Positions 1-16,238 of a stretch of 64,000 nt of DNA are shown here, in pieces. The stretch is taken from assembly GCA_964291495.2 (NCBI GenBank), contig OZ219868.1, positions 80,743 through 144,742 on the forward strand. The letters run 5' to 3'. The notes under the pieces were generated by a model. The model did not search any database. It was not told where the DNA came from and worked only from the letters and a program-made list of their open reading frames with translations. The translations under genes were made by a program, and so were the position numbers. Every line of letters starts with the position of its first letter. The stretch's first letter is position 1. The stretch comes from Dehalococcoidia bacterium. GTDB taxonomy: Bacteria; Chloroflexota; Dehalococcoidia; UBA2979.

Positions 1-172
1 ACACCATGAATCCGCTGCACAGGTCGTAGTAGTCCTTGACCGTCTCCGTGTGGTCGTACCCGGCTTCTGGCGCCGCCCGATCGATCCAGCCGTCGAAGCG
101 CTGGACTCTGTGCCTGACGTCCGTTCCCCGGTACGCATCTCGCAGCTCTCTCGATAGCCTGCGCAACTGCAC
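1..172 (-). CDS. 5' part of a SAM-dependent sterol C24-methyltransferase (SMT/Erg6)-like protein; runs off the left edge of the window
   Basis: Not in the ORF track. The minus strand from GTG at 172 (GGAGGAG SD at 182-188) reads MQLRRLSRELRDAYRGTDVRHRVQRFDGWIDRAAPEAGYDHTETVKDYYDLCSGFMV with no stop. 'TETVKDYYDLCSGFMV' matches the SMT segment (V-x-x-YYDL-x-T/S-x-F) that precedes the GWG-x-SFHF sterol-binding region I. Only 57 codons are visible. Confidence 0.7.
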   Translation of the reverse strand, partial: MQLRRLSRELRDAYRGTDVRHRVQRFDGWIDRAAPEAGYDHTETVKDYYDLCSGFMV

Positions 173-303: not shown

Positions 304-2349
304 TTATGAGCTCGCGGCCGGCGCTGTGGGGATCTCGCGCCGCTGCTCGGCGATGTGGAACTTCAGCTTCTTGCTCACCGAGAGCGACGGGAACGGGTCG
401 ATCTTGAGCTTGTAGTTCCTGGGCGCCACCTCGATCGTGAAGTGGTGCGCGAGCAGCAGCAGGTTGACGGCGAGCTGCAGCTCCATCCAGCGGTTCCCGA
501 GGCAGGTATGCGTACCCAGCCCGAACGGGGCGTACCCGGGGCTGAGGTGTTCGTTGCGCGGAGGCAGGTAGCGGTCGATGTCGAATGTCCACGGCTCCGG
601 GAAGATGTCGCTCATGTAGTGCGCCGCTGCCTGGGCGATGAAGATCCGTGACCCCTCCGGGATTTCGTAACCCTCGACCACGCACGCATTCATCACGGTC
701 CGGACGGACATCGGAACGATCGAGTACATGCGCATGGATTCCATGATGAAGCGGCGCGTCACGTCGATCGAGTCCTCCGTGAAGCCCTCGCGTCCGGGAT
801 CGCCGCCATCGAACAGGGCGTCCGCCTCTTCCCGGATCCTGGCGTAGAGCTCGGGCTGGGACGCCATCGCGTAGAGCGCGAAGCTCAGGCCATCGCCGAG
901 GTAGACGCTGGCGATCAGCGGCGCGGAGAGGACGAAGCGCAGGTTCGACTCCGGGAGGAACGAAGGGTCGCTCGAGTGCAAGCTGAGCAGGTCGTCCGCG
1001 AGATCGCGGGGGCAGCCCGCCCGCTGGGCGGCCGTGTGGACACTCTGGACGCGCTCCAGCAGCACCTGGATGCTCTTTGCCCGGCGCCGCATTCCCGGGG
1101 TCTTGAGCATGAACTTGGGCATGACACCCAGGACGTGCGTGGACAGCGCCCGCGTCTTGTACTTGACCAGATCGTCCAGGACGTCCTGCGAGTCGACGCT
1201 GATCATCAGGGGCGAGATCTGGGAGTTGATCAGCTGCCGGCACATGGACACCGCGGGGCGAGTGTCTCCAACCTCCCAGGTCGCCATGTGTGACCGGGTG
1301 TGGTCGTAGAGATCCTCGAGTTGCCCTTCCAGCCTCGCGCGCGAGTACCCCGGCGCCAGGGCCTTGCGGAACCGGAAGTGATCGGCGCCGTCCAGCGCGG
1401 GCAAGATTCCCGATGCGCCATAGACCTTCTCGAAGTCCTGGAGATAGTCCCGGGCCCTCAGGTACGTGCGCCCCTGCCGATGCGCCCAGTAGTTCGTCTC
1501 CGACCCGGCCAGGACGAGCATGGGCTTCTGGAACGGCGGGTTGAGCTGGTACACGGGCCCGTACTGTTCGGCGAGATCCGCGAACAGTGCGGGGAGATTG
1601 CCGTCGCGAAGATGCCGGTGCAGCGCGAACTTGAGCAGCGGTACCTGGGGAATCGACTTCGTAAGGCCGGCACGTCCGATCAAGGGGACGTTCATGTTCT
1701 GGGTGACTGCCTCGGCGATCGCCCGCCCGATCAGGTCCATCCGGCAGACAAGCTCGATGCGCTCCTCCAGCTCGTCGTCGAGCTGGAACATGAAGCGAAA
1801 CACGTCACAGGTATTGACGAGGGCGACAATGATCACGTCACGAGGGTCGGGGATCTCGTTGTTGAAGAGCACCCTGCTGATGCGCGTCTTGACGAACTGG
1901 GCAGCGGTGCCTTCCCTCTCGCTGCTGAACATCTCGGTCTGCCATGCACGATTCGCAAGCGTCCAGAAGTCGCCTTCGTGATGCTCCAGGATCTGTCGAT
2001 CAACCAGGCGCTCAAGCGTCAGGTCGATGATCGACTCTGCACGCGGCGCAAGCCGTTCGATCCAGTATTGCGCGTTTCGCTGCGTCGTTTCACTTGCAAT
2101 CTGATCCAGAATGGGATCCAGAACAGGATTGCCGGTTTCCGTCTGGTCCAGAAGGATCAGGGAGTCCATGTCTGTATCGATACGAGATATGAGCGACAGC
2201 TCCGCAAGTGCGGCGCCGACGACGGCGCAGTTCAAGTGCCAGCCTGGTACCTGGTGAAAGTACCCGCTCTCTTCATTGAGCAGCATCAGGATGAGCTCTT
2301 CGGGCAAACTCAGCGCTTGAGTCGTCACGCGGTCGGTAGCGAGAGTCAT
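304..2349 (-). CDS. GOLPH3/GPP34-domain::cytochrome P450 fusion protein (copy A)
   Basis: N-terminal ~210 aa 'LSLPEELILMLLNEESG...AVVGAALAELSLISRID...TGNPVLDPILDQI...YWIERL...LERLVDRQIL' is typical of the GPP34/GOLPH3 family. The C-terminal P450 has ExxR (ESMR), a PERF-like DIDRY and the heme ligand FGLGTHTCLG. GGAGG SD upstream. Confidence 0.9.
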   Translation of the reverse strand: MTLATDRVTTQALSLPEELILMLLNEESGYFHQVPGWHLNCAVVGAALAELSLISRIDTDMDSLILLDQTETGNPVLDPILDQIASETTQRNAQYWIERLAPRAESIIDLTLERLVDRQILEHHEGDFWTLANRAWQTEMFSSEREGTAAQFVKTRISRVLFNNEIPDPRDVIIVALVNTCDVFRFMFQLDDELEERIELVCRMDLIGRAIAEAVTQNMNVPLIGRAGLTKSIPQVPLLKFALHRHLRDGNLPALFADLAEQYGPVYQLNPPFQKPMLVLAGSETNYWAHRQGRTYLRARDYLQDFEKVYGASGILPALDGADHFRFRKALAPGYSRARLEGQLEDLYDHTRSHMATWEVGDTRPAVSMCRQLINSQISPLMISVDSQDVLDDLVKYKTRALSTHVLGVMPKFMLKTPGMRRRAKSIQVLLERVQSVHTAAQRAGCPRDLADDLLSLHSSDPSFLPESNLRFVLSAPLIASVYLGDGLSFALYAMASQPELYARIREEADALFDGGDPGREGFTEDSIDVTRRFIMESMRMYSIVPMSVRTVMNACVVEGYEIPEGSRIFIAQAAAHYMSDIFPEPWTFDIDRYLPPRNEHLSPGYAPFGLGTHTCLGNRWMELQLAVNLLLLAHHFTIEVAPRNYKLKIDPFPSLSVSKKLKFHIAEQRREIPTAPAASS

Positions 2350-2504
2350 CCATCTTCCTCCCTGCCCGTCATCAAAATAGTGTAGGTCACGCGCTCAGGC
2401 CTCGCAAGGCGACATCCGTGAGACGTCCGGCCAGCCGTGCGGGGAACGCCCCGCTCCCGTATCCTGACTCCGTGCAGCGGACGACAACAGCGGGAAGGCA
2501 GGCC

Positions 2505-3887
2505 ATGGCAACGGGCCGGGGAGCGAGAGCGCCACGGCGAATTGCCATTGTCGGCGGGGGTATTTCCGGGTTGGCCGCGGCGTGGGCGCTGCACCATCAC
2601 CCGGACCGCTTTGACTTCCGCCTCTTCGAGGCTCGGGACCAGCTTGGCGGCAACGCGATCACGGCTGATATGCCGCAAGGTGACGGCAATTCGATCCCGT
2701 TCGACATTTCTGTTACCGCCTGTATCCCATCTGTATACGACCATATTGTCCTGCTCATGGAGCAGTTTGGCATCGAGCTGCTCGACACAAGATTCAGCTA
2801 CAGTGTGAAGTACGCGGGCCAGGTATACGCGCACGACTTCGACTCTGATATCAGGGAAGAACTGCGATCTGAGATTGCGAGATTCCAACGACTCTTAAGG
2901 CGGCTGCATTGGTTCGGAGCCCTCACCCGGTCCCGGTCGAAGCTCCTGAACGCGCTCAATCCGTTCAACTACATCAGCATGGGAACGGTGCTCAATCTGG
3001 GAGGGTTTTCCGCCGACTTCCGCTACAAGGTGTTGAAGCCGATGTTCGTCAACTTCCTGATGGCGACGAACGTGTTCGATATGCCTGCGGCGCTCTTCAC
3101 GAGGTACCTCGAGTTCTTCGATATCGAGACCGCCACGCCGATGCAGACGTGGGACCAGGGCACGCGACGCATCTACGAGCAGCTGTCGGCCGGCTTCCTC
3201 GACAAGATCTCCCTGAGCCGCCCGGTCCGGAAGGTGTATCGCCGCGCCGCCGGAGTCGTCGTCGAGGACGAGGACGGCGCGCGGGAGGCGTTCGACGATG
3301 TGGTCTTCGCGTGCAACGCGAACCAGACGCTGATGATGCTCGACAGGCCTACGATGCTCGAGCGCCAGCTCCTCTCCTCGATTCGCTACGACAGCGAGCT
3401 GCACAACCACGCGATCGTGCACTCGGACTCCTCGGTCCTGCCTGACAACGAGGTCAAGCCGCTGACGACGCGCAGTAATCACATCGAGCAGTACGGGGCG
3501 CGGCCGGACAACTACGAGATCACCTACATCATGCACAACCAGCAGCCGTGGGCGAACAAGTCGGACAAGCCCTGCCTGGTCACCTACAACCCGATCAGCC
3601 GCATCGACGAGGAGAAGATCGTCAAGCGAACGTGGTTCCAGCACATCGTCCACGACGTGCGCCACGTCGCCCTGACCGTGAACCTCTTCCGCTTCATCCA
3701 GGGGAAGCGACGAACCTGGCACTGCGGCGCCCACACGCTGATCAACAGCCAGGAGACGTGCTTCGTCACCGGGCTCGCCGCGGCGAGGCAACTCGGCGCC
3801 GACTACCCCTTCGAGGATCCTGCGGCGCGGCAGTCATTCAACTACTACGGCAGCATCCTCTACGGCTCGCGATTCAGGAAGGCGTAG
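2505..3887 (+). CDS. FAD-dependent oxidoreductase, COG2907-like (amine-oxidase fold; lipid desaturase/isomerase-like)
   Basis: GGGISGLAAAW dinucleotide-binding motif and LFEARDQLGG. Later motifs VFACNANQ, HSDSSVLP, ITYIM, LVTYNP and IQGKRRTWHCGA parallel the COG2907 family. ATG 2505 is preceded by GGAAGG and is preferred over GTG 2418. Confidence 0.8.
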   Translation: MATGRGARAPRRIAIVGGGISGLAAAWALHHHPDRFDFRLFEARDQLGGNAITADMPQGDGNSIPFDISVTACIPSVYDHIVLLMEQFGIELLDTRFSYSVKYAGQVYAHDFDSDIREELRSEIARFQRLLRRLHWFGALTRSRSKLLNALNPFNYISMGTVLNLGGFSADFRYKVLKPMFVNFLMATNVFDMPAALFTRYLEFFDIETATPMQTWDQGTRRIYEQLSAGFLDKISLSRPVRKVYRRAAGVVVEDEDGAREAFDDVVFACNANQTLMMLDRPTMLERQLLSSIRYDSELHNHAIVHSDSSVLPDNEVKPLTTRSNHIEQYGARPDNYEITYIMHNQQPWANKSDKPCLVTYNPISRIDEEKIVKRTWFQHIVHDVRHVALTVNLFRFIQGKRRTWHCGAHTLINSQETCFVTGLAAARQLGADYPFEDPAARQSFNYYGSILYGSRFRKA

Positions 3888-4036
3888 CGCCCGAGGGCCC
3901 TCGTCACAGGGGTCCGGCGGACCCCGCGGCGCGCACCGTTCGGCGTGCGACGAGCGGGTGACTCTCGTATTCTGGATCTGTGCCCGCTTTGCGGGGAGGC
4001 CGTCAACCCGGTATCCGGGGTGAGGAGGGCCGAGCG

Positions 4037-5143
4037 ATGCCAGTCCGACACGGCGAGCCCGCGATTGTCTCGCTGCCCCCGTTCCCCGAGGGCTGGTACT
4101 TCGTCACGAGCCGCAAGGCCCTGCAGCAGGCCGGGCTCATCCAGAAGACCTGGATGGGCGAGGACATCGTCGTCTGGACTGACGAGGAAGGCCGCGCCTG
4201 CGTCGCCGAGGCCATCTGCCCGCACCTGGGCTCCGATCTGGGACCCGACGCGGGCGGGCGCGTCTGCGCCGGCCGGCTCGTCTGCCCCTTCCATGGCTTC
4301 GAGTTCGATACGACCGGCCAGTGCGTCGACACTCCCTACGCTCCCCCGCCCAGGTCCGCCAGGCTGCGCGTCTTCGAGACACGAGAGATCGCCGGCCTGA
4401 TCTTCGGCTGGTGGGGGATCGGAGGTCGGGAGCCTCAATGGAGCCTCCCCGAGGAGACGCCGGACCAGACCGGCTGGAGCGAGGTGTACGTCCAGACGCT
4501 CCGCTTCCCCGGCCACCCCCAGGAGATCGCGGAGAACTCGGTGGACCTGGCCCACCTCCGCTACATCCACGGCTACCACAGCGTGAACCGCGTCGAACCG
4601 GCCTCGGTAGACGGGCACCACATGGTGAGCCGGTTCGACTTCACGAGTCGCCGCAAGGTCGCGAAGGTGGCGACCCTCACCTTCGAGCTCTCCGCCAACA
4701 CCGACATCTACGGGCTGGGCTACTCGTTCGTCGACATCCGGGAGCACACGATCGGCATGGATCTGCGTCTGTGGATCCTGGCGACGCCCGTTGACGGCAC
4801 GCTCGTCGACATGACGCTGGCCTCGCAGGTGCGGGAGATCAGCAACCCGAAGCGACTGTTCGTCGGCCTGGGCTTCCTCCCGCGCAAGCTCCGCGCCCCG
4901 CTCATGAACAGGTTCATGGCGTCCCGGCAGCGTCAGGACGTGCTGGACGACGTCGTGATCTGGAGCCGCAAGCAGTTCGTGTCGCCTCCGCGCCTCAACC
5001 GCTCCGACGGCGAGATCATGGCCTATCGGGCGTACTGCGCCCAGTTCTACCCCGACCCGACCGCCGACGAGAGCGCCGCTGCGACGCACATGGCGCCGCC
5101 CCGGGAAGTCCCGAGAGCCGCGGCCGTCTCGCTGCGCGACTAG
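4037..5143 (+). CDS. Rieske non-heme iron oxygenase, Neverland/DAF-36 (cholesterol 7-desaturase) / KshA-like
   Basis: FPEGWY N-terminus, Rieske ligands CPHLG...CPFHG, mononuclear Fe motif ENSVDLAHLRYIH, and C-terminal D-x-x-IW-x-x-K...P-x-L...DGEI-x-x-YR-x-Y-x-x-QFY characteristic of sterol Rieske oxygenases. GAGGAGG SD before ATG 4037. Confidence 0.85.
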   Translation: MPVRHGEPAIVSLPPFPEGWYFVTSRKALQQAGLIQKTWMGEDIVVWTDEEGRACVAEAICPHLGSDLGPDAGGRVCAGRLVCPFHGFEFDTTGQCVDTPYAPPPRSARLRVFETREIAGLIFGWWGIGGREPQWSLPEETPDQTGWSEVYVQTLRFPGHPQEIAENSVDLAHLRYIHGYHSVNRVEPASVDGHHMVSRFDFTSRRKVAKVATLTFELSANTDIYGLGYSFVDIREHTIGMDLRLWILATPVDGTLVDMTLASQVREISNPKRLFVGLGFLPRKLRAPLMNRFMASRQRQDVLDDVVIWSRKQFVSPPRLNRSDGEIMAYRAYCAQFYPDPTADESAAATHMAPPREVPRAAAVSLRD

Positions 5144-6486
5144 GCGGGCGCCTCGAGTGGCGCCCGCTTCGGCGGCGGCTCACGTGAGGCGAGGATAGCG
5201 AGGGCGCCGCCGAGGTAGGCGGCGACGAAGGCCGCAAATACGCCCTCGTACGACCCGACCGCGTCGAAGTACAGCCCACCGAGGACGGGACCCAGCGCAC
5301 CGAAGACGATCGTGAACGGCGCCGCGACGCCTCGCACCGCCCCGATGTGCACGCGCCCGAAGTACTTCGCCCAGATGAACTCACTGAGCGGTACCGTTCC
5401 ACCGAACCCGAAGCCCCAGAAGAAGAACGCGACGAACATCAGCGGCAGCGCTCCCAGCTGCGCCGCGACGAGCATGGTGACGACGCCCGTCGCCGAGATC
5501 GACAGCGCCGTCGCCCCGAGGTAGCGGACGTGCACCCGCTGCAGGAAGTAACCCCACACGAACTTCGAGCTGAGGTTGGCGCCGCCGTTGACCGCGATCG
5601 CCAGCGCGGCCTCGGTGCGCGTGAAGCCGTTGTCCGTCATGAACGGAATGGCGTGCACCAGCACCGCCAACAGCGCCATGGTGTTCAGCCCGTAGCCGAC
5701 GATCAGCAGCCAGATCGCCGGCGTGCGCAGCGCCTCGCCGCGCGTGTAGGAGTTCGCGGCGTCCTGCGCCTGAGCCTCGGCCGCCGTGCCGCCGCCCCTC
5801 GCCCGCGCGCCGGGCTCGACGCCGTCGGGTCGAAGACCGTGGTCCTCGGGCCGCCGCCGCATCACGAGCGCGACCGGCACGACGATCGCGAACATGAACA
5901 GCGCGAGGATCGCGTAGGCGTCGCGCCACCCGGTCGAGTCGACAATGCGCGTCATCGTCAGCGGCATGATCAGCCCCGCGAGCGAGATGCCCGACGAGCC
6001 GAGCGCGATCGCCCAGCCGCGCCGCAGCACGAACCACTTCGAGAGCGTCGCGTTCACGACGAGCGGTCCGACCATCGAGAATCCGGCGCCGCCGGCGATC
6101 ATCGAGAGCGCGACGAACTGCCACAGCTCCTCGACACGCGACATCGCGAAGAACGAGACGGCGTAGACGCAGGCGCCGGCAAGCATCAGCGGCCGCGCCC
6201 CGTAGCGGTCGATGAACGGCCCGGCCACGAACCCGGCGACGCCGCCAAGCAGGAAGGCGGACGAGCCGCCGAGGGTGTACTCGGCCGCGGTCCAGCCGAG
6301 TTCCTCGGTCATCGGGCGGAGGAAGACGCCGGCGATGGCCCCGCCGGCGCCCATCGCCGCGAACTGGGCGACGATCGCCCCGGCGACGATGTACCAGCCC
6401 CAGAAGACGCGGCGAGGCCTCGCGGCGGGTAGTGCCCTCGAGCGCGGCTCGTCGTCGTCCACGGGCGCGGCGGGCTCGCGACTCAT
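5140..6486 (-). CDS. MFS transporter
   Basis: About 12 hydrophobic segments, MFS motif A (GPFIDRYGARP) and WFVLRRG. TATGCT -10 box 6 nt before the ATG suggests a leaderless mRNA. Confidence 0.9.
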   Translation of the reverse strand: MSREPAAPVDDDEPRSRALPAARPRRVFWGWYIVAGAIVAQFAAMGAGGAIAGVFLRPMTEELGWTAAEYTLGGSSAFLLGGVAGFVAGPFIDRYGARPLMLAGACVYAVSFFAMSRVEELWQFVALSMIAGGAGFSMVGPLVVNATLSKWFVLRRGWAIALGSSGISLAGLIMPLTMTRIVDSTGWRDAYAILALFMFAIVVPVALVMRRRPEDHGLRPDGVEPGARARGGGTAAEAQAQDAANSYTRGEALRTPAIWLLIVGYGLNTMALLAVLVHAIPFMTDNGFTRTEAALAIAVNGGANLSSKFVWGYFLQRVHVRYLGATALSISATGVVTMLVAAQLGALPLMFVAFFFWGFGFGGTVPLSEFIWAKYFGRVHIGAVRGVAAPFTIVFGALGPVLGGLYFDAVGSYEGVFAAFVAAYLGGALAILASREPPPKRAPLEAPA

Positions 6487-6659
6487 GGCGGCAGCATAGC
6501 GGCAGTGGAGGCTCGGTCAGGCGCGCAGCGCGGTCCAGCTCCGCCATGGACCGGCAGCGCGGTTCAATGCCAGAACCTGGGTCGTGTCCGGGAGTACGGC
6601 CGGCCAAGGAGGACCGTACTGCGAGCTTCACAGCATGTACAGAGGGCTGCTCATCGTCA

Positions 6660-6840
6660 CGGACGGTCGCGAATCTGAGGGCGGGTGTGCGGGTCGAGGT
6701 GCCGATCATCGAGGCGGTCGAGGGCTCAGATCTTGTTACCAATGAACAGACACCGGTTTCCGCGTTCAGAAGCGACAAGATCGAGCGCGTGCCGTTGGTC
6801 GTGACCGTCCCGCTCACGCGCCGGAAGACCCGACAACTGG
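6660..6840 (+). pseudogene. Probable degraded gene fragment, homologous to 16620-16713
   Basis: The + frame reads ...VRVEVPIIEAVEGSDLVTNEQTPVSAFRSDKIERVPLVVTVPLTRRK with GC3-rich codons. The SDKIERVPLVVTVPLTRR block recurs at 16645. No credible start/SD. Confidence 0.4.
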
Positions 6841-7072
6841 CTACGGCGCCCTCGCCTGATCGTCCCAGGGGGTCTCGTCCTGAGTGCCGCAGCGCCGTCC
6901 CGGATCTCAGTGTGTAGTAGGAGAAGCGCCTACTAGTGGGGTGCGGTCTCGGGACTGATGAGACCGCGGCGTTCCTCGCCCCGGGTGCGGATCCAGGTGA
7001 CCAGACACATGAGGCGGTCACGGGGCAGTCGCCTGCTGTCGCGGTAGTCGCGGGCACGATTAGGGCCGAGTG

Positions 7073-7170
7073 AGACATTGAGCAGTAATCGGTACAAATT
7101 GACCGCTGCATTGGACGGAAACACAACAACCAATGGTTATGATCCACACGCTATATCACTGATTCGCATC
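7073..7170 (+). promoter_or_regulatory. Conserved upstream promoter/operator module of P450 copy B (homologous to 13638-13734)
   Basis: AGACATTG-N2-CAGTA-N5-TACAA...TGGACG...AACAACC...TATGAT(-10, 7138-7143)CCA...ATCAC-T-GATTCGCATC. The same blocks occur in the same order upstream of the P450 at 13571. Confidence 0.7.
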
Positions 7171-7251
7171 CTAGGCAGGGATGGGAGCCGACGTTCGGAC
7201 GGGCGGTACCACAACTTCACGGGAGCCGATGTGTTCCAGGAGGAGGATTCC

Positions 7252-9240
7252 GTGAGCCACCTGAGCCTGGCCGATAATCTGTGCCTGCTGATGCTCGATG
7301 ACGCTTCCGGGAGCCTCTGCCGCCTCGAGGGGCGAACCCGAGACTTCGGCTTCGCGGCCGCGGTCCTGTTGGAGTTGGAGCAGCATGAACGCATCCAGAC
7401 CCAGCCGGGCCTGCTGTCCGTCATCGATGCAACACCGCTCGGTGACCCCGTCGCGGATCCGGTGCTCGCTGAGGTCGCGGACAGTGATCACTCGTCTCCG
7501 CAGGACTGGGTGCGACGTATTGGCTCTCGGTCCGGCTCGGAGATAGCCGCCGCCACCCTGGACCGGCTCGTAGCACGCGGAGTCCTTGAGCAGATACCGG
7601 GCGACCTGTTCTTCCTCCCGTCCGAGGTGGCGCGTTCACAGCGCTACCCGGGGGCAGTAGGCGGCGCTGACGAGGTCCGCATCCGGGTGATGCGGGCACT
7701 CTTTGGCGGCGACGCCCCGGATACATCCGATGCGGACCTGATAGGGCTCGCCGATTCCTGCGGTGTCTTCGGCGTCATCCTGAGCGCTGGCGAGTTCGAC
7801 AAGGTGAGGGATCGGATCGGAGAGATTGCGCCACGCAACCCGCTGTGCCGAGCGGTTGAGCAGGCGGCGGCCGACGACCTGGCCGCGCAAGGGCCCTCGC
7901 GCGGGGCGTTCCCGCCGATACCCGAGGTCCGGGGGCTTCCGATCCTCGGCAACGCGGTGGGCATGGCCGGCAACCTGCAGCCATTCCTCGACAAGCAGTA
8001 CAGGCGGCATGGTCCAGTTTTTGGTCTTCGAGTGCCGGGGAGACGCATGGTCGTCATGGCGGGCAAGGAAGCTGTTGCTTTCATGAAGGAGCATTCCCAG
8101 ACGCACCTTCGCAGCAACCGGTCGTTCACTGACTTTCTGGACGCGATGGAGACAGATCGCTCGATCATCTCAATGGACGGTCACGATCACATCAAGCTCC
8201 GGCGCATCGCTCACGCGGGCTACAACGAGATGACCGTCGCAGACAACCTGTCAACGGTCATCGAGGTCACCCGCCGCGCCGTCGCCTCCTGGCCCACTGG
8301 ACGACCGCTTTCGGTGTACCCCGCAATGCAGGAAATCGTGATTCCGCAACTCGGCGTTGTCGCAACCGGACTTGCGCCCACCGAATTCGTGGACGATCTC
8401 CGGTACTGGTTCGACTCGCTCGTGATTGCAATGCGTCGCGACCGTCCGAAGTTCATGGTCGAGTACCGGCTGCGCAAGGTGCGTCCCAGAATCAGGGAAC
8501 TGTTCCACCGGGCCGTGGAGTTGCACGACCCCGAATTGCGCGATGGACGCCCTCGCGACCTGCTCGATGAGTTCATGGACCTGCGGAGGCGGGATCCGCA
8601 GTTCCTTCCGGAGACCGACCTGGCCTCTTCCGTGGTGGCTCCATACATCCAGGCATTGGACCCCGTCGCCGGGACCTTGGGGTTCGCCCTGTTGCGCCTG
8701 TTGGCAGAGCCGCAGCATGCCGAGGCTCTCCAGGAGGAGGCCGATGAAGCGTTTGCCGCCGGGCTGGCGGATGCGGATGCCATTAGCGGACTGGAGAAGA
8801 CGTACGCCTTCCTTGCCGAGGTCATGCGCTGCCACACGATCACGCCGGTGATGCTGCGCACGGCGTGCAACGCGTTCGAGTTCGAGGGCCACTGGGTGCC
8901 CGCCGGCACTTCGCTGTGGATGGCTCCGGGGGTGGTCCACAGCGACCCCGATCATTATCCGAACCCCGAGCGATTCGAACCTGAGCGGCATTTGCCCCCA
9001 CGCCTGGAATCCACGGAGCAGGGCGCGTTCGTCCCCTTCGGGGTCGGTCCTCACTCCTGCCTCGGAGAGTCGTTCGCCAAGGATCAGATGGCGGTGACGC
9101 TTGCGACCCTGCTGCACTACGCGGAGTTCGACCGCTATCCGAGTCGAGACAACCGCATGAGGATCACTTCCTACCCTTCACTCCGTCCGCACCGCAAGAG
9201 CCGCGTTCAGGTGAAGCGTCAGCGGTCCGCCCAGCGGTGA
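7252..9240 (+). CDS. GOLPH3/GPP34-domain::cytochrome P450 fusion protein (copy B)
   Basis: GTG at 7252 after AGGAGG. N-terminal 'LSLADNLCLLMLDDASG...AAAVLLELEQHERI...LGDPVADPVLAEV...DWVRRI...LDRLVARGVL' is GPP34-like. P450 motifs EVMR, PERF and FGVGPHSCLG. Confidence 0.9.
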   Translation: MSHLSLADNLCLLMLDDASGSLCRLEGRTRDFGFAAAVLLELEQHERIQTQPGLLSVIDATPLGDPVADPVLAEVADSDHSSPQDWVRRIGSRSGSEIAAATLDRLVARGVLEQIPGDLFFLPSEVARSQRYPGAVGGADEVRIRVMRALFGGDAPDTSDADLIGLADSCGVFGVILSAGEFDKVRDRIGEIAPRNPLCRAVEQAAADDLAAQGPSRGAFPPIPEVRGLPILGNAVGMAGNLQPFLDKQYRRHGPVFGLRVPGRRMVVMAGKEAVAFMKEHSQTHLRSNRSFTDFLDAMETDRSIISMDGHDHIKLRRIAHAGYNEMTVADNLSTVIEVTRRAVASWPTGRPLSVYPAMQEIVIPQLGVVATGLAPTEFVDDLRYWFDSLVIAMRRDRPKFMVEYRLRKVRPRIRELFHRAVELHDPELRDGRPRDLLDEFMDLRRRDPQFLPETDLASSVVAPYIQALDPVAGTLGFALLRLLAEPQHAEALQEEADEAFAAGLADADAISGLEKTYAFLAEVMRCHTITPVMLRTACNAFEFEGHWVPAGTSLWMAPGVVHSDPDHYPNPERFEPERHLPPRLESTEQGAFVPFGVGPHSCLGESFAKDQMAVTLATLLHYAEFDRYPSRDNRMRITSYPSLRPHRKSRVQVKRQRSAQR

Positions 9241-9442
9241 AGCCTGCCGGCGTAGCCCGCGGTGACCACGGAAGCCAGGGTTGGCCGCCCGCAGGGTCCG
9301 AGGTCCGCATGGCACTCGCCTGTTGGTGCGGGGCACGTCTCTCCCGTAGTCCGTGTATCCGCGTCGTCGCGTGGTGGTCCGGTGGGCGGGTGGCGGCTGC
9401 ACGGTGTCGAGCGGCCGCGCCGCTCACACGGAGTGGCGTGCG

Positions 9443-12067
9443 ATGAACCAGGCGCTCTCCCGTCTGACCTGGCTGGTCACGGCTCGCCCCTGGGTCACGA
9501 TCTTCGTCCTCCTGCTGACTACGGTGGTGCTCGCTGCGGGGGCGGAACGGCGCGCGCCTGTGGTGGAGGGCGCAGTGCTCGCGTTCCTCCCACCCGGACA
9601 CCCCATTGCGGAGGCGTCGAACGAAATCGACGAGCTCTTTGGGGATTCGGGCGAAGTGACGGTTGTCACGATCATCTTCCGCGGGAATGCGTTCACGCCC
9701 GAAGGGCTCGCCCAGATGGATGCGCTCACCTGGGGCGTCCTTGCCGACGCACAGGTGGAAGCAGTGCTGGCGCCCGGTGAGTCAGTGATCGCGCCCTCTT
9801 TGCTCGTCCGGGAGGCGCTCCAGGTAGACAGCTTCGAGTCGGTCACGCAGGCGCAGATCAACTCCGCCCTCGGTTCACCCGAGATCGAAGAGGTGCTGGC
9901 AGCGATGACCGCATCCGACGCAGACGGCAACCCTGTGGCGATCGCCACGGTGCGGCTGAGCGACGCGGACGAGCGGAAGGTCGCGGATGCGGAGAGGCGG
10001 ATCAATGAGCTGACGGCCGGAAACGTGGGCCCGTTACGTGTGAGCAGCGTGTCGCCCGTTGTTGTCGAGGCCGAGTACAGAGACGCTACCGAGTCGGGGA
10101 TGCTGCCCCTGATCGCGCTCGCGCTTGGGTTGGTCGCATCCCTGATCCTGCTGTTTCTGCGTACGCTCGCGGACCTCTTGCTCACGCTTCTGGGGCTATT
10201 CGTCGCCCTCATCTGGGTCGTCGGCGCGGAGGGATGGCTTGGGCCACATGGTCTTGGCTGGATCGGCCCGCCGAGCTCGCACAGCGCGATGGTCCCGATC
10301 ATCGTGATCAGCCTCACCGTGGACTATGCCATCCAGACTGTCTCGAGCTATCGCGAGCAGCGAACCGCGGGGTTGCCGGTGGCCGATGCGATCGGAACGG
10401 GACTGGGACACGTCGCGATTCCACTGATGCTGGCTGCCGTGACGACGATCGCGAGCCTGCTGACGAATCTGTTCTCGCCCATCGGCGCGGTGGGCGACTT
10501 CGGCATCGTCGCGGGCCTCGGGGTTGGCCTGAGCCTGATCGTGATACTGACCCTGCTCCCAGCGGGACGGATGATCATCGACCGGCGGCGCGAGCAGCGC
10601 GCCACGCTCGCTCCGCCCCGTCCGGTCTCGAGTGCGCTGCCGGGCGTCAGGCGCGCTGCGGAGTTGCTGGGAACGTCTGTCACGCGCCGGCCGGCCCCGT
10701 TCATCCTTGTCGTGCTCGCGATCACGGTCGGACTCGGGTTCGCGGCCGCGCGGCTCGAGACCGGATTCGACATCCGCGACATCCTGCCAAGGGGCGGGAC
10801 CGTGCTGGAGGACATCGAGACCCTCGAAGCCTTCGGCGGATCCACGGAGATGGCGAGCGTACTCGTGAAGGCGGAGGCGACTGACACCCGCACGTACCTG
10901 AACCTGAACGATCTCAGGGTTGCCTTCGAAGATGATCGGCTCCGGCCACAGGCAGCTGCAGGGCCCATCCACACCTCATACGAGCTGCTTGTGCACGACT
11001 GGACGCACGACAGCGGCGAAGAGGGCGACAAGTACGATGCCGGGCTCGCAGAGCTCTTCCGCCACGCTTCGGTCGGCCTGAGGCTGAATCCGGTGCTGCT
11101 CCAGGAGCTTCTCGACAGGCTGAAGGCGAAGGAGCCCGCCCTCGTCAGCGTACTTGCCGACAATCCCGATGGAATCGATTCGTTGCTGTTCCAGTTCCCG
11201 ACCTTCTCAGGCGATCCCGAAGCAACAAGGGCGCTGCAGCAGGACATCGAAGCGCTGTGGCGAGAAAAGGACGTGAGCGTGACGGTTACGTCGCTGGACG
11301 TCGTTTCCGTCGCAGTCACGGATGAGATCACGCGCGGTCAGACGGCGGCGATCAGCACGACGATCGCGGTAGCCATCGGCGTCCTCGCCATCTTCTTCTG
11401 GGTGACACTGCGGCAACCCGCGCTTGCATTCATTGCGGTGGTGCCGGTGGTGCTCGCACTCATCTGCGTGCTGGGAACGATGGCGCTCCTGGACATTCCC
11501 TACAACCTGATCACATCCATCATCACCGCGCTCTCCATCGGGATCGGCGTTGACTACACCATCCACATCATCCATCGCTACCGCGAGGAGTTCGCCCGCT
11601 CGCGCAGCCCGGAGCAGGCGGCGGTCAGCACGCTTGCAACCATCGGCTCGGCGCTGTTGGGCTCGGCACTGACGACGGCGCTCGGCCTCGGGGTGCTGGT
11701 GTTTTCGCCGCTGCTCGCTTCCCAACAATTCGGCATCACGGCGGCGATCACCATCGCGTACTCGCTGGTCATCTCCATCCTGCTCGTTCCGCCCGCGATG
11801 ACGGTCTGGGGGTCGTACCAGAACATGCGGTTGCGCTCGATGGTGGAGCGACGTGGGCAGAGCTCGATGTGGCCATTGAGGATGCGTACCAGCGCCACGG
11901 GGAGAGAGCGGGCCTGGCCTAGGATGTTCCTGCCCGCCTGGTCCGGTACGAATGCGCTGAGGGGTGGGGAGCTCTTCGAAGGTCTGTCGGCGTCTCCGCT
12001 GTCCGCAGTCGGCGGTCGCGCGCCGGTCTGGTTGGTCAGGCTGATGTGCGCGGCGAGGTGCGGATGA
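9443..12067 (+). CDS. MMPL/RND-family lipid transporter; the C-terminus probably carries a 1-nt frameshift (alternative stop at 11922)
   Basis: Two repeats of (TM + large extracytoplasmic domain + 5 TM), RND signatures SLTVDYAIQ and GIGVDYTIHIIHRYREE, and GSALLGSALTT. ATG 9443 is preferred as start. Confidence 0.88.
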   Translation: MNQALSRLTWLVTARPWVTIFVLLLTTVVLAAGAERRAPVVEGAVLAFLPPGHPIAEASNEIDELFGDSGEVTVVTIIFRGNAFTPEGLAQMDALTWGVLADAQVEAVLAPGESVIAPSLLVREALQVDSFESVTQAQINSALGSPEIEEVLAAMTASDADGNPVAIATVRLSDADERKVADAERRINELTAGNVGPLRVSSVSPVVVEAEYRDATESGMLPLIALALGLVASLILLFLRTLADLLLTLLGLFVALIWVVGAEGWLGPHGLGWIGPPSSHSAMVPIIVISLTVDYAIQTVSSYREQRTAGLPVADAIGTGLGHVAIPLMLAAVTTIASLLTNLFSPIGAVGDFGIVAGLGVGLSLIVILTLLPAGRMIIDRRREQRATLAPPRPVSSALPGVRRAAELLGTSVTRRPAPFILVVLAITVGLGFAAARLETGFDIRDILPRGGTVLEDIETLEAFGGSTEMASVLVKAEATDTRTYLNLNDLRVAFEDDRLRPQAAAGPIHTSYELLVHDWTHDSGEEGDKYDAGLAELFRHASVGLRLNPVLLQELLDRLKAKEPALVSVLADNPDGIDSLLFQFPTFSGDPEATRALQQDIEALWREKDVSVTVTSLDVVSVAVTDEITRGQTAAISTTIAVAIGVLAIFFWVTLRQPALAFIAVVPVVLALICVLGTMALLDIPYNLITSIITALSIGIGVDYTIHIIHRYREEFARSRSPEQAAVSTLATIGSALLGSALTTALGLGVLVFSPLLASQQFGITAAITIAYSLVISILLVPPAMTVWGSYQNMRLRSMVERRGQSSMWPLRMRTSATGRERAWPRMFLPAWSGTNALRGGELFEGLSASPLSAVGGRAPVWLVRLMCAARCG

Positions 12068-12146: not shown

Positions 12147-13571
12147 TCAGCGGCGACGTTCGAGTCTCATCGGCATGCCGCCCTTCACCTTGAGGCTCAT
12201 GCGAGGCACAACTTCCGCCTTGCCGGTCGCGTCGGCGCGCCAACGACGGCACAGGCTAGCCAGCGCGATCTTCGCCTCCATCCACGCGAAGCCCTCGCCG
12301 ATGCACTGGTGTGGGCCTCCCCCGAAGGGGAAGTACGCGAAGCGCGGCAGCTCACTGCGGAACTCGTCCGTCCAGCGCCCGGGGCGGAACTCCAGCGGAT
12401 CCTCGAACCAGCGCGGATCGCGCTGCGTGATGAACGGCGCTGCTATCACCGTGACGCCCGCCGGGACGTGGTATCCGCCCACGTCGATGGGCTCGTACAC
12501 CATCCTGCCCAGCGCCCAGAACGGCGGATAGAGCCTCAGTGTCTCCGTGATGATCTGGTCGGTGAGGGGCAGCTGGGGCAAGTCGTCGAGTGTCACTTCG
12601 CGATCGCCCAGCACACCGTCCAACTCCGCATGGAACCGCTCTTCCACGTCGGGGTTCCGCGAAAGGAGATGGAACGCGTACGCGAGGGTCGTCGCCGTGG
12701 TGTCGTGCCCGGCGAGGTACAGAGAGACCGCCTCGTCACGCACCAGCTCGTCGCTCATCCCGCCGGCGTCCTCGCCTTCCGCATCCTCGTACCTGGCCTG
12801 TAGCAGCATGCACAGCAGGTCGTCCCCCTCGGCCCCGGACTGCCGGCGTTCGCGGATCAGGCCGAAGATCAGGTCGTCCAGGTAGGCGCGAGCAGCCTTG
12901 AAGCGCCTCGAGGAAGGCAGCGGCAGACGATGGAGCAGGTGCCGCAGGAACACCGGCTGGGTCAGGCGGAGATACATGTACCTGTCGGCCTCCGCGAACG
13001 ACTCACCCACGCGCCGGACCACCTCGCTCGTCTCGATATCGAACAGGGCCTTGGCCACCATCTGGAGCGTCAAGTCCCGCATCTCCTGCTCCATGTCCAC
13101 ACTGGCGCCGTCCTGCCACTGCCGGGACTTCCGGGACGAGATGTCGGTCATCGCGTGAGCGTATTTCTCGATGAACCTGTGATGGAACCGGGGCTGTATC
13201 AGCCGCCGCTGCTGCAGGTGAAAGGCTCCCGTGGATGCGACGAGGCCGTCTCCCATCATCCAGCGCACGGTCTCGAACGCAGCGGCGCCCCTGCCGGTAT
13301 TCTGGTGGTTGGTCACCAGGACCTGCTGGTTGAGTTCCGGGTGATTCACGAGATAGATCAGGATCGGCTTCATCGCCACGGTGCTGACATCACCGTACGT
13401 GGCGGCCTCCTGCAACAGACCAATCAAGTCGGACCGCAGGCGGAACGCCTGCCCGAGCACTGGCAGCCCGGATGGCCCAGGGGGGCGTTCAGCTGACTGG
13501 ATGGACGGTCTGGGAGGATCGGAGAGCGGCTCGGCGTTGGTCGTGACCGACTGTGCCGGGCGTGGCTGCAT
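12147..13571 (-). CDS. Cytochrome P450 (canonical, soluble; copy C)
   Basis: PPGP N-terminal motif, I-helix AGHDTT, ETLR, PGRW and heme motif FGGGPHQCIG. Start uncertain (13571 or 13607). Confidence 0.93.
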   Translation of the reverse strand: MQPRPAQSVTTNAEPLSDPPRPSIQSAERPPGPSGLPVLGQAFRLRSDLIGLLQEAATYGDVSTVAMKPILIYLVNHPELNQQVLVTNHQNTGRGAAAFETVRWMMGDGLVASTGAFHLQQRRLIQPRFHHRFIEKYAHAMTDISSRKSRQWQDGASVDMEQEMRDLTLQMVAKALFDIETSEVVRRVGESFAEADRYMYLRLTQPVFLRHLLHRLPLPSSRRFKAARAYLDDLIFGLIRERRQSGAEGDDLLCMLLQARYEDAEGEDAGGMSDELVRDEAVSLYLAGHDTTATTLAYAFHLLSRNPDVEERFHAELDGVLGDREVTLDDLPQLPLTDQIITETLRLYPPFWALGRMVYEPIDVGGYHVPAGVTVIAAPFITQRDPRWFEDPLEFRPGRWTDEFRSELPRFAYFPFGGGPHQCIGEGFAWMEAKIALASLCRRWRADATGKAEVVPRMSLKVKGGMPMRLERRR

Positions 13572-13637
13572 CACGCTATCCCGTTCGCCGGAGATGGCCG
13601 GCGCCACTGCGGGAGGCGAAAGCCCGGCGCGTCCAGC

Positions 13638-13838: not shown

Positions 13839-16238
13839 ATGACGGACGCTGATCAGCGAGACGCCGAGAACGGGGCCCTCCGACACCGGCTGTCCCGACT
13901 CAGCGAGGCCAGCCTCAGGATCAATGAAAGCCTCGATCTCGATCGAGTACTCCAGGGCGTCATGGAGAGCACGCGGGCGCTCACCGGCGCTCGGGCCGGC
14001 GTCATGCTGCTCTTCGACGACTCGCTCCAGGTCCAACACGCGCTCACGTCGGGGCTGACGGTGGCGGAACAGGCGCAGTTGTGGCAGATGGAAGACGGGA
14101 TGCTCCTCTTCAACCACATCGGCGGTCTCACATCGACGGTTCGGCACCCCGACTTCAGCGCGTATCTGAGGGACCTGGGGCTCCCGGACTTCGATTCCCC
14201 ACTGGACGTGCACTCACCGCTCCCGTTTCTCTTCACTCCCATCACCTACGAAGGCAAACCGATCGGCGCGATCTACCTCGGCGACAAGCCGACCGGTGAG
14301 GAGTTCACGCAGGAGGATGAAGAGACCCTCGTCATGTTCGCGTCCCAAGCCGCGCTGGTGATCGCGAACGCCCGCTACCACCGGGACGAGCGACGTGCAC
14401 GCAATGACCTCGAGGCACTGATCGATTCCACCCCCGTGGCGGTGCTCGTGTTTGACCCAGGCACAGGCCTTCCGGTCTCGTTCAACCGCGAGGTTATTCG
14501 GCTGGCCAACGAGCTGAGCTCTCCGGATCAAAGCCCGGAGGACGTGCTGAAGGTCCTGACGGTGCGCCGGGCGGATGGTGAGGAAGTCTCCCTCCAGGAA
14601 TTGCCGCTGACGACCGCGCTGCGTACCGGCGAGACGGTGCGCGCTGAAGAGATCGCGCTCTCCGTCCCTGATGGGCGCAGCCTGACCGCACTGCTCAACG
14701 TCACCCCAATCCACTCGGAGGCGGGGGCGGTCGAGTCCGTGGTCGTCACGGTGCAGGATTTGCGGCCTCTGGAAGAAGCAGAGCGCATGCGGGCCGAGTT
14801 CCTGGCCATGGTCAGCCACGAGCTGCGTACCCCGCTGAGTTCGATCCGGGGTTCCGCGGACACCCTGCTGGACGAACAGGCCGAGCTCCAGCCGGCCGAG
14901 GCGCGCGAGTTCTTCCGGATCATTCACGACCAGGCCGGGCGCATGCGCCGACTCATCAGCGACCTCCTGGACGTGGCCCAGATCCAGACCGGCAACCTCT
15001 CCGTCTCTGCCACGCCGGAAGAGGTACGCAACCTTGTGGACGAGGCGAGGAACTCCTTCGCGTCTTCAGGCGGCCAGAACAACATCCATGTTGAGCTGCC
15101 CCCGGACCTCCCGCTCGTGATGGCTGACCGCCCGCGTATCGTTCAGGTCATCACCAACCTGCTGTCCAACGCTGCTCGCCACTCGCCCGACCTCTCGACA
15201 GTTCGACTGAGTGCCGAGTCCCGGGGCCTGCATGTCGCCGTTACCGTCTCGGACCAGGGAAGCGGCTTCCCGGCCGAGCAGCTCCCCCAGCTCTTCCGGA
15301 AGTTCGCACGCGCCGAGGGCGAAGAGGCAGATACGGGGCTCGGCCTGGCTATCTGCAAGGGCATCGTCGAGGCGCACGGGGGGAGGATCTGGGCAGAGAG
15401 CGACGGACCAGGACAGGGTGCGAGCTTCACGTTCACGCTGCCACACGTGGCGCGGGAGCCGGCGCCGGAGCCAGTCCGTGACTCCGCCCGCTCGCAACGT
15501 GCCTCCCACGCTGAGCAGCCTCGAGTCCTGGTGGTCGACGACGACCCCCAGATGCTCAGATACGTCCGCGATGTCCTGACCCGGGCGAACTACGCCTCGA
15601 CCGTGACCGGGGAGCCGGCTGAGGTCCCCGACTTGATGCACCAGGTCGAGCCGCATCTGGTCTTGCTCGACCTGGTACTGCCTGGCGCTGACGGGATCGA
15701 GTTGATGCAGACGATCCGCAATATCGGCCGGGTGCCGGTCATCTTCCTGTCCGCATACGGCCAGGACGATGTGATCGCACGCGCATTCGAAATGGGGGCG
15801 GCCGACTACGTGGTCAAGCCCTTCTCGCCGACCGAGTTGACAGCGAGGATCCAGGCCGCATTGCGTCGCGAGAGCGAGCAATCGGGCCAGGCCGTGATCG
15901 TCGCGCCGTACATGGTGGGGGATCTCACCATCGACCACGGGCAACGTCGGGTGACCGTCGCTGGCCGACCGGTTGAGCTCACCGACACCGAGTACCGGCT
16001 GCTCGCCGAACTGGCAGCCAACGCAGGCCGCATCATGACGCACGAGCAGCTGACTCAACGCCTCTGGGGACCGTACAAGCCCGCCGGCTCGGCCCCCGTG
16101 CGAGGGATCGTCACGCGGCTGCGCCGCAAGCTGGGCGACGACGCGTCCAATCCGACGTACATCTTCACGAGGCATCGCGTCGGCTACTGGATCGCGAAGG
16201 GCGGTGAGGGCGATGGAGAACAGTCCTCGGGCAGGTAA
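13839..16238 (+). CDS. Cytoplasmic hybrid sensor-regulator: GAF-PAS-HisKA-HATPase-REC-OmpR-type winged helix (paralogue 1)
   Basis: GAF (SLDLDRVLQ...GAIYL...FTQEDEETLVMFASQAALVIANAR), PAS (LIDSTPVAVLVFD), H-box VSHELRTPL, N-box NLLSNAARH, G-boxes DQGSG and GLGLAICK, REC (VVDDD, LLD, DYVVKPF) and wHTH (LTDTEYRLL...RLRRKLGD...RVGY). No TM segment. Confidence 0.92.
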   Translation: MTDADQRDAENGALRHRLSRLSEASLRINESLDLDRVLQGVMESTRALTGARAGVMLLFDDSLQVQHALTSGLTVAEQAQLWQMEDGMLLFNHIGGLTSTVRHPDFSAYLRDLGLPDFDSPLDVHSPLPFLFTPITYEGKPIGAIYLGDKPTGEEFTQEDEETLVMFASQAALVIANARYHRDERRARNDLEALIDSTPVAVLVFDPGTGLPVSFNREVIRLANELSSPDQSPEDVLKVLTVRRADGEEVSLQELPLTTALRTGETVRAEEIALSVPDGRSLTALLNVTPIHSEAGAVESVVVTVQDLRPLEEAERMRAEFLAMVSHELRTPLSSIRGSADTLLDEQAELQPAEAREFFRIIHDQAGRMRRLISDLLDVAQIQTGNLSVSATPEEVRNLVDEARNSFASSGGQNNIHVELPPDLPLVMADRPRIVQVITNLLSNAARHSPDLSTVRLSAESRGLHVAVTVSDQGSGFPAEQLPQLFRKFARAEGEEADTGLGLAICKGIVEAHGGRIWAESDGPGQGASFTFTLPHVAREPAPEPVRDSARSQRASHAEQPRVLVVDDDPQMLRYVRDVLTRANYASTVTGEPAEVPDLMHQVEPHLVLLDLVLPGADGIELMQTIRNIGRVPVIFLSAYGQDDVIARAFEMGAADYVVKPFSPTELTARIQAALRRESEQSGQAVIVAPYMVGDLTIDHGQRRVTVAGRPVELTDTEYRLLAELAANAGRIMTHEQLTQRLWGPYKPAGSAPVRGIVTRLRRKLGDDASNPTYIFTRHRVGYWIAKGGEGDGEQSSGR

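Follow-up and report, generated by a model that had tools for sequence, protein, structure and literature searches.

What a GPP34 domain, a homologue of eukaryotic GOLPH3, could be doing on a bacterial cytochrome P450 is the question raised by two genes near the start of a 64,000-nucleotide stretch of DNA from a Dehalococcoidia bacterium (assembly GCA_964291495.2, contig OZ219868.1, positions 80,743 to 144,742 of the forward strand), the whole of which is referred to here as the window. Both genes, gene 1 and gene 2, encode a GPP34 domain fused to a P450. The reading favoured here, held with moderate confidence from sequence comparison, is that both products are P450s of the cytoplasm acting in the tailoring of sterol-like lipids, with GPP34 serving for docking or as an adaptor. 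The fusions would act within a horizontally shared lipid-tailoring and transport module, together with a divergent sterol methyltransferase (SMT)-like enzyme, a KshA-like Rieske oxygenase, a flavoenzyme and a sterol-sensing MMPL or RND pump.

Two GPP34::P450 fusions from deep clades of one family

Gene 1 (304..2349, minus strand) is an open frame of 681 amino acids (P0001). Its GPP34/GOLPH3-fold domain (residues 15-216; 1702..2307, minus strand) was recognized by Pfam, by a PDB profile and by Foldseek, and its P450 domain (residues 244-660; 370..1620, minus strand) by Pfam, with the heme cysteine C616 encoded by the codon at 502-504. Gene 2 (7252..9240, plus strand) sits in the open frame 7078-9240(+), where a GTG start at 7252 gives a protein of 662 amino acids; the database form of its own product has 669 amino acids (P0123), implying a start at 7231, and the difference is trivial. 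Pfam placed its GPP34 domain at residues 6-206 (7267..7869, plus strand) and its P450 domain at about residues 214-648 (7891..9195, plus strand). The GPP34 matches (PF05719; E 9e-31 and 107.9 bits in gene 1, E 3e-30 and 106.3 bits in gene 2) are to be read against a curated cut-off of 29.1 bits, and nearly all of the 201 model positions were matched in both genes. In both proteins a short linker leads from GPP34 to a complete p450 match (PF00067; E 3e-38 in gene 1, E 3e-51 in gene 2). The heme-thiolate motif reads FGLGTHTCLG in gene 1 and FGVGPHSCLG in gene 2, ExxR is kept by both, and the heme cysteine motif (FxxGxxxCxG) was present in 55 of 57 aligned fused proteins, both window genes among them.

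The fusion is real and conserved and is not an assembly artefact. Both Pfam domains were found in all 120 listed homologues of gene 1 (about 675 amino acids; the best of 2225 hits among 8000 scored candidates) and in 47 of the 59 hits of gene 2, the remaining 12 being P450 only. The two window proteins share 30% identity over 667 columns (BLASTP, E 1e-90, both domains covered) and 29% in the GPP34 domains alone, which indicates that both domains diverged together. A quick tree placed them in two separate deep clades of the fused family, each with a Shimodaira-Hasegawa-like approximate likelihood ratio (SH-aLRT) support of 100. These results bear out the first-pass annotation of this DNA, which had described GPP34::P450 fusions at 304-2349(-) and 7252-9240(+) as old and maintained. 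Several variants of the architecture were also observed. P0195 consists of two GPP34 domains and a P450 (872 amino acids) and P0193 of two GPP34 domains alone (444 amino acids); P0159, found with gene 2 and predicted at 649 amino acids, joins GPP34 to the first half of a P450 and to a sulfotransferase domain, and may be a frame chimera or a hint of sulfotransferases joining the module.

Each of the two genes has closer relatives in other phyla than in its partner in the window. The relatives of gene 2 carry the names Bryobacterales, Acidimicrobiia and, at 75% identity, Binatia; its clade was found in one of 401 sampled genomes of the phylum, namely this genome (E <= 1e-150), and a search of metagenome contigs with gene 2 returned one weak locus, with 42% identity over residues 500-643. 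Both clades are again present, 3 kb apart, in the Binatia locus (L076), around the methyltransferase gene. The gene pair is better described as anciently diverged family members travelling in the same module than as a local duplication.

Neither protein showed a signal peptide or transmembrane helix on hydropathy scanning and inspection of the N-terminus. The maximum 19-residue hydropathy was 1.70 and 1.56 for the fusions, as against 2.93 and 2.68 for the MMPL and MFS transporters used as controls.

The GPP34 fold and the PI4P pocket

A phmmer search of the PDB with a single GPP34 domain was nearly blind (Vps74 at E 0.42), and a profile was needed. The profile of 31 bacterial GPP34 domains matched human GOLPH3 (3kn1) at E 6.5e-18 and yeast Vps74 at E 1e-16. 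The N-terminal 236 residues of gene 1 were modelled by AlphaFold2 with a predicted local distance difference test (pLDDT) score of 88.9, and the model retrieved GOLPH3 or Vps74 as all of its top eight Foldseek matches in the PDB (E 4.7e-9 to 6e-5, template modelling (TM) score 0.52-0.67), the ninth match being already at E 0.15. A beta-hairpin is present in the model, with strands at 121-124 and 128-131. The earlier assignment of the N-terminal regions to GPP34 is thus supported by Pfam, by the PDB profile and by structure comparison with GOLPH3/Vps74.

The lipid pocket tells a different story. According to the available text of Wood et al. (2009; PMC2806290), the phosphatidylinositol 4-phosphate (PI4P) pocket of GOLPH3 is formed by W81, R90, R171 and R174, and PI4P binding is lost when these residues are changed to alanine in pairs. 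In a profile alignment that included full-length GOLPH3, the four positions are taken by P35, V44, E105 and I108 in gene 1 and by E, A, S and A in gene 2. Among 57 fused proteins, none had Trp at the W81 position, a basic residue at the R90 position or a basic residue at the R171 position (acidic in 34 of the 57); R or K occupied the R174 position in 16 of the 57, and in 13 of the 31 sequences of the GPP34 alignment (A2), mostly short forms. The bacterial fused family has invariant residues of its own, R56, W96 and R156, each in 57 of 57 sequences. The alignments therefore show a bacterial GPP34 domain that lacks the PI4P pocket of eukaryotic GOLPH3, and PI4P-type binding, which the first-pass annotation cites for eukaryotic GOLPH3, is not supported for gene 1 or gene 2, where none of the four pocket residues is kept.

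This bears directly on the function already proposed for the family. In its accessible text, the study of Ferreira et al. (2025; Microbiome 13:4; PMC11706023) reports that GPP34+P450 accounts for 656 of 663 long GPP34 proteins ("GPP34_L"), that the long forms are confined to sponge symbionts, which span many phyla, and fall into a single clade, that rare GPP34+Rieske and GPP34+PotA forms exist, and that a genome holds 1-6 diverged copies. It also reports that a P450 is often near the short GPP34 forms; flanking genes were examined there for the short forms alone, in two actinobacterial groups. By predicted domain organization, gene 1 and gene 2 belong to this GPP34_L class; as the GPP34+P450 architecture was published there in January 2025, the novelty that had been claimed for the fusion falls away. 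The genome analysed here also holds a third GPP34, a short stand-alone form (L082:9872-10654(+), contig C5), 4 kb from a stand-alone P450 (L082:14630-15832(+)) and 6 kb from a flavin monooxygenase-type gene.

Ferreira et al. proposed that GPP34 is a secreted effector that binds host PI4P and stops phagosome maturation, with the P450 somehow assisting. The distribution of the family speaks for such a role: the same text describes it as confined to symbionts of sponges and corals and as not detected in free-living relatives, and of the 41 relatives of this genome surveyed here, 20, from 3 of the 23 genera, had a GPP34. Moreover, the homology of the domain to a PI4P-binding protein is genuine, and the basic residues seen at the R174 position in some sequences are in line with the proposal. 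Against it stand the pocket positions described above, the want of a signal peptide in either protein (specialized secretion signals lie outside the reach of the tools used) and the fusion of GPP34 to a heme enzyme needing cytoplasmic electron donors; in the text of PMC11706023, neither secretion nor binding was tested. We regard the effector proposal as very improbable, and the gene context described below adds to the case against it.

A shared module of lipid-tailoring and transport genes

The context census drew on contigs taken at one genome per species and comprised the 80 loci closest to gene 1 among 552 confirmed relatives. An SMT-like gene (about 350 amino acids; CMAS/Methyltransf_11 with Sterol_MT_C) was present in 58 of the 80 loci, with a median gap to the fusion of 55 bp. 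A KshA-like Rieske gene was found in 67, an MMPL or RND (AcrB-type) pump in 66 and an amine-oxidase-type flavoenzyme in 51. All four partners occurred together in 36 loci and at least one in every locus, within 10 kb; the order varies and the linkage persists. Restricting the count to the 63 loci flanked on each side by 8 kb or more gave 47 (SMT), 54 (Rieske), 41 (flavoenzyme) and 52 (pump). The titles of the loci name Chloroflexota/Dehalococcoidia, Nitrospirales, Latescibacterota, Opitutales, Longimicrobiales/Palauibacter and Binatia, and an amino-acid identity of 67-95% across several phyla indicates transfer between phyla. Tying the fusions to a mobile module of this kind argues against secreted effectors: the neighbours of the gene are pumps and lipid enzymes of the cytoplasm and membrane, and in some genomes it sits inside sterol-synthesis clusters. 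The same lipid and sterol context makes membrane docking or lipid presentation by GPP34, the idea advanced in the first-pass annotation, more plausible.

In the window, the SMT-like gene (340 amino acids; Methyltransf_11 and Sterol_MT_C) is represented by its N-terminal 57 codons (1..172, minus strand) and continues past the window start; it lies on the strand of gene 1, 131 nt downstream of it, and is the only SMT-like gene found in the genome. The flavoenzyme, an amine-oxidase-type flavin adenine dinucleotide (FAD) oxidoreductase (2418..3887, plus strand; Pfam Amino_oxidase), has its likely start at the ATG at 2508. It is followed by the KshA-like Rieske oxygenase (3980..5143, plus strand; Pfam Rieske and KshA_C). 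The pump, an MMPL/HAE3-type RND transporter with a sterol-sensing/Patched-type domain (9353..12067, plus strand), begins 112 nt downstream of gene 2. A second MMPL copy, also with a sterol-sensing/Patched-type domain, lies just upstream of the window, so that two MMPL genes flank the cluster; beyond the window start the order after the SMT-like gene is this second MMPL and then a LuxR-PAS regulator, and a thiolase-like gene is also found upstream. NCBIfam gave no equivalog for any member of the module.

The genome-wide distribution of the methyltransferase runs parallel to that of the fusion. Among 41 relatives of this genome, which are not independent samples, Sterol_MT_C was found in 13, all of which have a long-frame GPP34 (one cut by a contig end), and in none of the 25 without a long-frame GPP34. 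In 7 of the 13 the Sterol_MT_C and GPP34 matches lie at most 2.5 kb apart on the same contig.

Two lineages link the fusion to sterol synthesis itself. One genome of the same genus has an MMPL gene, a GPP34-P450 gene (product 54% identical to gene 1) and the genes for squalene epoxidase and cyclase side by side on the same strand. The other case is a Nitrospirales genome, where about 13 kb separate the fusion from a squalene epoxidase and cyclase frame; this interval contains a further P450, ERG4/ERG24, a Rieske gene of VanA_C type, a reductase of 3beta-HSD type, SMT and the flavoenzyme. The Nitrospirales frame itself (L084:7522-11331(-)) has 1269 amino acids and combines squalene epoxidase and triterpene cyclase, like msbE of the Melophlus symbiont locus. 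No cyclase was found in the genome analysed here, which is 93.7% complete, and one was found in 2 of 18 other genomes of the genus, the genome with the adjacent squalene epoxidase among them. The lack of a cyclase in this genome suggests that the lipid would be taken up rather than made.

Uptake could also serve degradation. The module might import host sterols through the pump and degrade them for carbon, with the P450 acting on the side chain and the KshA-like oxygenase opening ring B. The closest solved structure to the Rieske protein is indeed a 3-ketosteroid 9alpha-hydroxylase (E 1e-22, full length), and the missing cyclase, the thiolase-like gene upstream and an acyl-CoA dehydrogenase near the fusion in one locus (L083) would all suit catabolism. 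It is opposed by the nature of the tightest neighbour, a member of the sterol side-chain methyltransferase family, by the squalene epoxidase and cyclase that adjoin the fusion in some genomes, and by the conserved module itself, which contains no KstD-type or meta-cleavage genes (the whole genome was not searched for these). Steroid catabolism is therefore considered improbable.

Whether the substrate is a sterol at all can be asked of the methyltransferase. The motif 84-GWGxxFHF-91 is, in the available text of the Brown and Welander preprint (10.64898/2025.12.19.695621), kept by all functional SMTs. Of 62 SMT-like open reading frames in the 80 loci, 52 carry the Region I form M(V/I)x|GW(G/S)(E/D)SLHF, and the copy of this genome reads MVW|GWSESLHF; the partner methyltransferase is a divergent subfamily. 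Such remodelling of Region I would fit a module that tailors a non-sterol lipid, such as another triterpenoid, a hopanoid-like or an unsaturated acyl lipid, so that the likeness to sterol enzymes would be at family level only. Other observations lean the same way: some clustered SMT homologues are inactive on standard sterols (Brown et al., PMC10070321, legend to Fig. 3); the flavoenzyme has LkcE as its closest solved structure (E 3e-31) and the fatty-acid isomerase-type entry 2b9w among its relatives; the pump scores best with HAE3 and HpnN-like models; and the cyclase is lacking in 16 of the 18 searched genomes of the genus as well as in this one. On the other side, Sterol_MT_C is specific to sterol methyltransferases in Pfam and matched none of 14 control genomes, the fusion is linked to squalene epoxidase and cyclase, ERG4/ERG24 and SdmA/B-like genes in two lineages, and the pumps carry sterol-sensing domains. 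A non-sterol substrate is judged unlikely, if somewhat less so than catabolism.

Further features of the region were noted. Membership in SdmA was rejected (34 bits against an NCBIfam cut-off of 600), as was membership in BstA and HpnN, far below the NCBIfam cut-offs. The flavoenzyme is the best-conserved gene of the module, with 71-88% amino-acid identity across phyla, and it gives a strong depth peak (2743-4113) in each of the four sponge-type runs compared at a likeness of at least 90%. An LppX/LprAFG-type lipoprotein with a lipid-carrier fold (for example L010:18331-19119(-)) and a second MFS transporter recur in about 20 of the 80 loci, where they stand between the genes for the Rieske protein and the flavoenzyme; these loci belong to one sublineage of Dehalococcoidia. 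The MFS transporter of the window (5140..6486, minus strand) is a local neighbour, found in 3 of 80 loci, and the stand-alone P450 at 12147..13607 (minus strand), which has a canonical I-helix, is not conserved in the module (weak counterpart in 3 of 80 loci). Just past the cluster, two paralogous hybrid proteins of about 800 amino acids (13839-16238(+) and 16959-19403(-)) consist, by eye, of a sensor region, a histidine kinase, a receiver and an OmpR-type DNA-binding end, with a weak counterpart in 2 of 80 loci. An RNA-labelled sponge library (X15) contained short contigs of 90-100% likeness to both fusion genes, to the start of the SMT-like gene and to the MFS gene; these contig matches do not demonstrate transcription of the window organism's own genes, and the uncovered parts are uninformative.

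Proposed role and comparison with known systems

The P450 domain gives its own indications. The full-length AlphaFold2 model of gene 1 (pLDDT 89.0) had a predicted TM score (pTM) of 0.85, a hint of a fixed domain arrangement; a complex prediction with gene 1 split into P450 (240-681) and GPP34 (1-222; alignment A1) scored 0.00, which weighs neither way on binding. The P450 part of the model is nearest to CYP184A1, CYP102 and CYP51 (class II-like, TM about 0.8), and no family stands out. As CYP51 chains scored no better than CYP184, CYP102 or CYP4 (E about 1e-19 to 1e-20), and a separate P450 of 498 amino acids lies beside the cyclase in the Nitrospirales locus (L084), assignment to CYP51 sterol 14alpha-demethylase was rejected. 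The I-helix of gene 1 reads IASV-YLGD, with the acid-alcohol pair lost and a one-residue deletion, and this loss marks a single clade of 18 among the 55 tree rows; gene 2 reads QALDP, with the acid kept and Pro in place of Thr. Most other branches of the fused family keep AGxDT. Pfam found GPP34 and p450 only, with no fused flavodoxin, FAD reductase or ferredoxin domain in the window proteins.

Taken with the gene context, these features lead to the following proposal. The P450 would oxidize a sterol-like lipid, and GPP34 would work in cis, recruiting the soluble P450 to the site of the hydrophobic substrate, either the membrane or a partner, by a mode of docking other than the PI4P pocket of eukaryotic GOLPH3. 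That the substrate is a sterol, that GPP34 docks the enzyme and in which direction transport runs are inferences. Several points weigh against the proposal. The docking role is a suggestion, drawn from homology and gene context. The closest P450 structures (CYP184A1, CYP102 and CYP51) point to no single substrate, and the divergent Region I of the partner SMT means that the substrate may not be an ordinary sterol. With the I-helix altered in the gene 1 clade and in gene 2, classical O2-dependent hydroxylation is not assured, and no ferredoxin or reductase gene was found in the first 14 kb of the window. Lastly, the 80-locus census speaks for relatives of gene 1, the gene 2 clade being represented by this window and the Binatia locus (L076).

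A bolder extension is speculative and, taken as a whole, rather doubtful: GPP34 could possibly be a general docking and hand-over module for sterol oxygenases, being fused to P450s, fused to Rieske oxygenases in two published genomes and found beside P450s when alone, and the mobile module could let symbionts without a cyclase take up host sterols, re-functionalize their side chain or nucleus and export unusual sterols. If this hand-over role were true, part of the odd sterol chemistry of sponges, including biomarker side-chain alkylation, would be bacterial work, and a first functional clue for the prokaryotic GOLPH3 homologues would be at hand. The matter bears on the debate whether symbiotic bacteria contribute to the sponge sterols that are used as molecular fossils. 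Among the gene families known as markers of sponge symbiosis the fusion is also the most widespread, and PI4P-based manipulation of the host is the one reading of it published so far. What the present analysis adds is the gene context, which is not stated in the papers searched; the architecture itself, being already published, has limited weight as a discovery. The word 'sterol' does not occur in the text of PMC11706023, whose supplementary files may hold more context data, and no published link between GPP34 and sterols was found in the literature searched, in which coverage of subscription journals was thin and supplements were excluded.

Compared with human GOLPH3 and yeast Vps74 (PDB 3kn1, 9qpq and 2zih), the window proteins share the fold (profile E 6.5e-18 to 2e-16; Foldseek TM up to 0.67) and the beta-hairpin seen in the gene 1 model. 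They differ in the loss of W81/R90/R171/R174, in having the invariant R56/W96/R156 instead, and in the fused enzyme; bacteria, furthermore, are without Golgi or COPI. With P450s fused to redox partners, such as P450 BM3 (CYP102) and the Methylococcus CYP51-ferredoxin, they have in common a soluble bacterial P450 with a second domain, and the window P450 fold is closest to these class II-like enzymes, CYP102 and CYP51-type (TM about 0.8). In contrast to those fusions, the additional domain of the window proteins is N-terminal, has no flavin or iron-sulfur motif and cannot supply electrons.

The sterol clusters of sponge symbionts (Brown et al., 2023, PMC10070321; the msb locus of the Melophlus symbiont, PMC7074536), as set out in the available texts, match the Nitrospirales locus in layout. 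The families SMT, Rieske, NAD(P) reductase, ERG4/ERG24, P450 and the squalene epoxidase and cyclase fusion are shared with the loci L084 and L013. The genome analysed here differs from these clusters in having the tailoring and transport part only, without the cyclase, and an SMT of the divergent Region I type. GPP34 is not mentioned in the main texts of PMC10070321 and PMC7074536, and the terms 'P450', 'Rieske' and 'transporter' do not occur in the text of the former.

The closest known system is GPP34_L as described in the text of Ferreira et al. (2025). Gene 1 and gene 2 agree with it in domain order, in length (about 660-680 amino acids) and in the presence of several diverged copies per genome, and there is no architectural difference; the occurrence of a short GPP34 near a stand-alone P450 is likewise shared. 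The setting appears to be the same, as the nearest relatives are metagenome-assembled genomes with sponge-type bin names and most of the runs with parts of the window bear the label sponge metagenome; the sponge habitat of the window family is taken from these titles and labels only. The difference is one of interpretation only: the published account describes a secreted PI4P binder, and the present analysis points to sterol-like lipid chemistry as the probable role of the same proteins.

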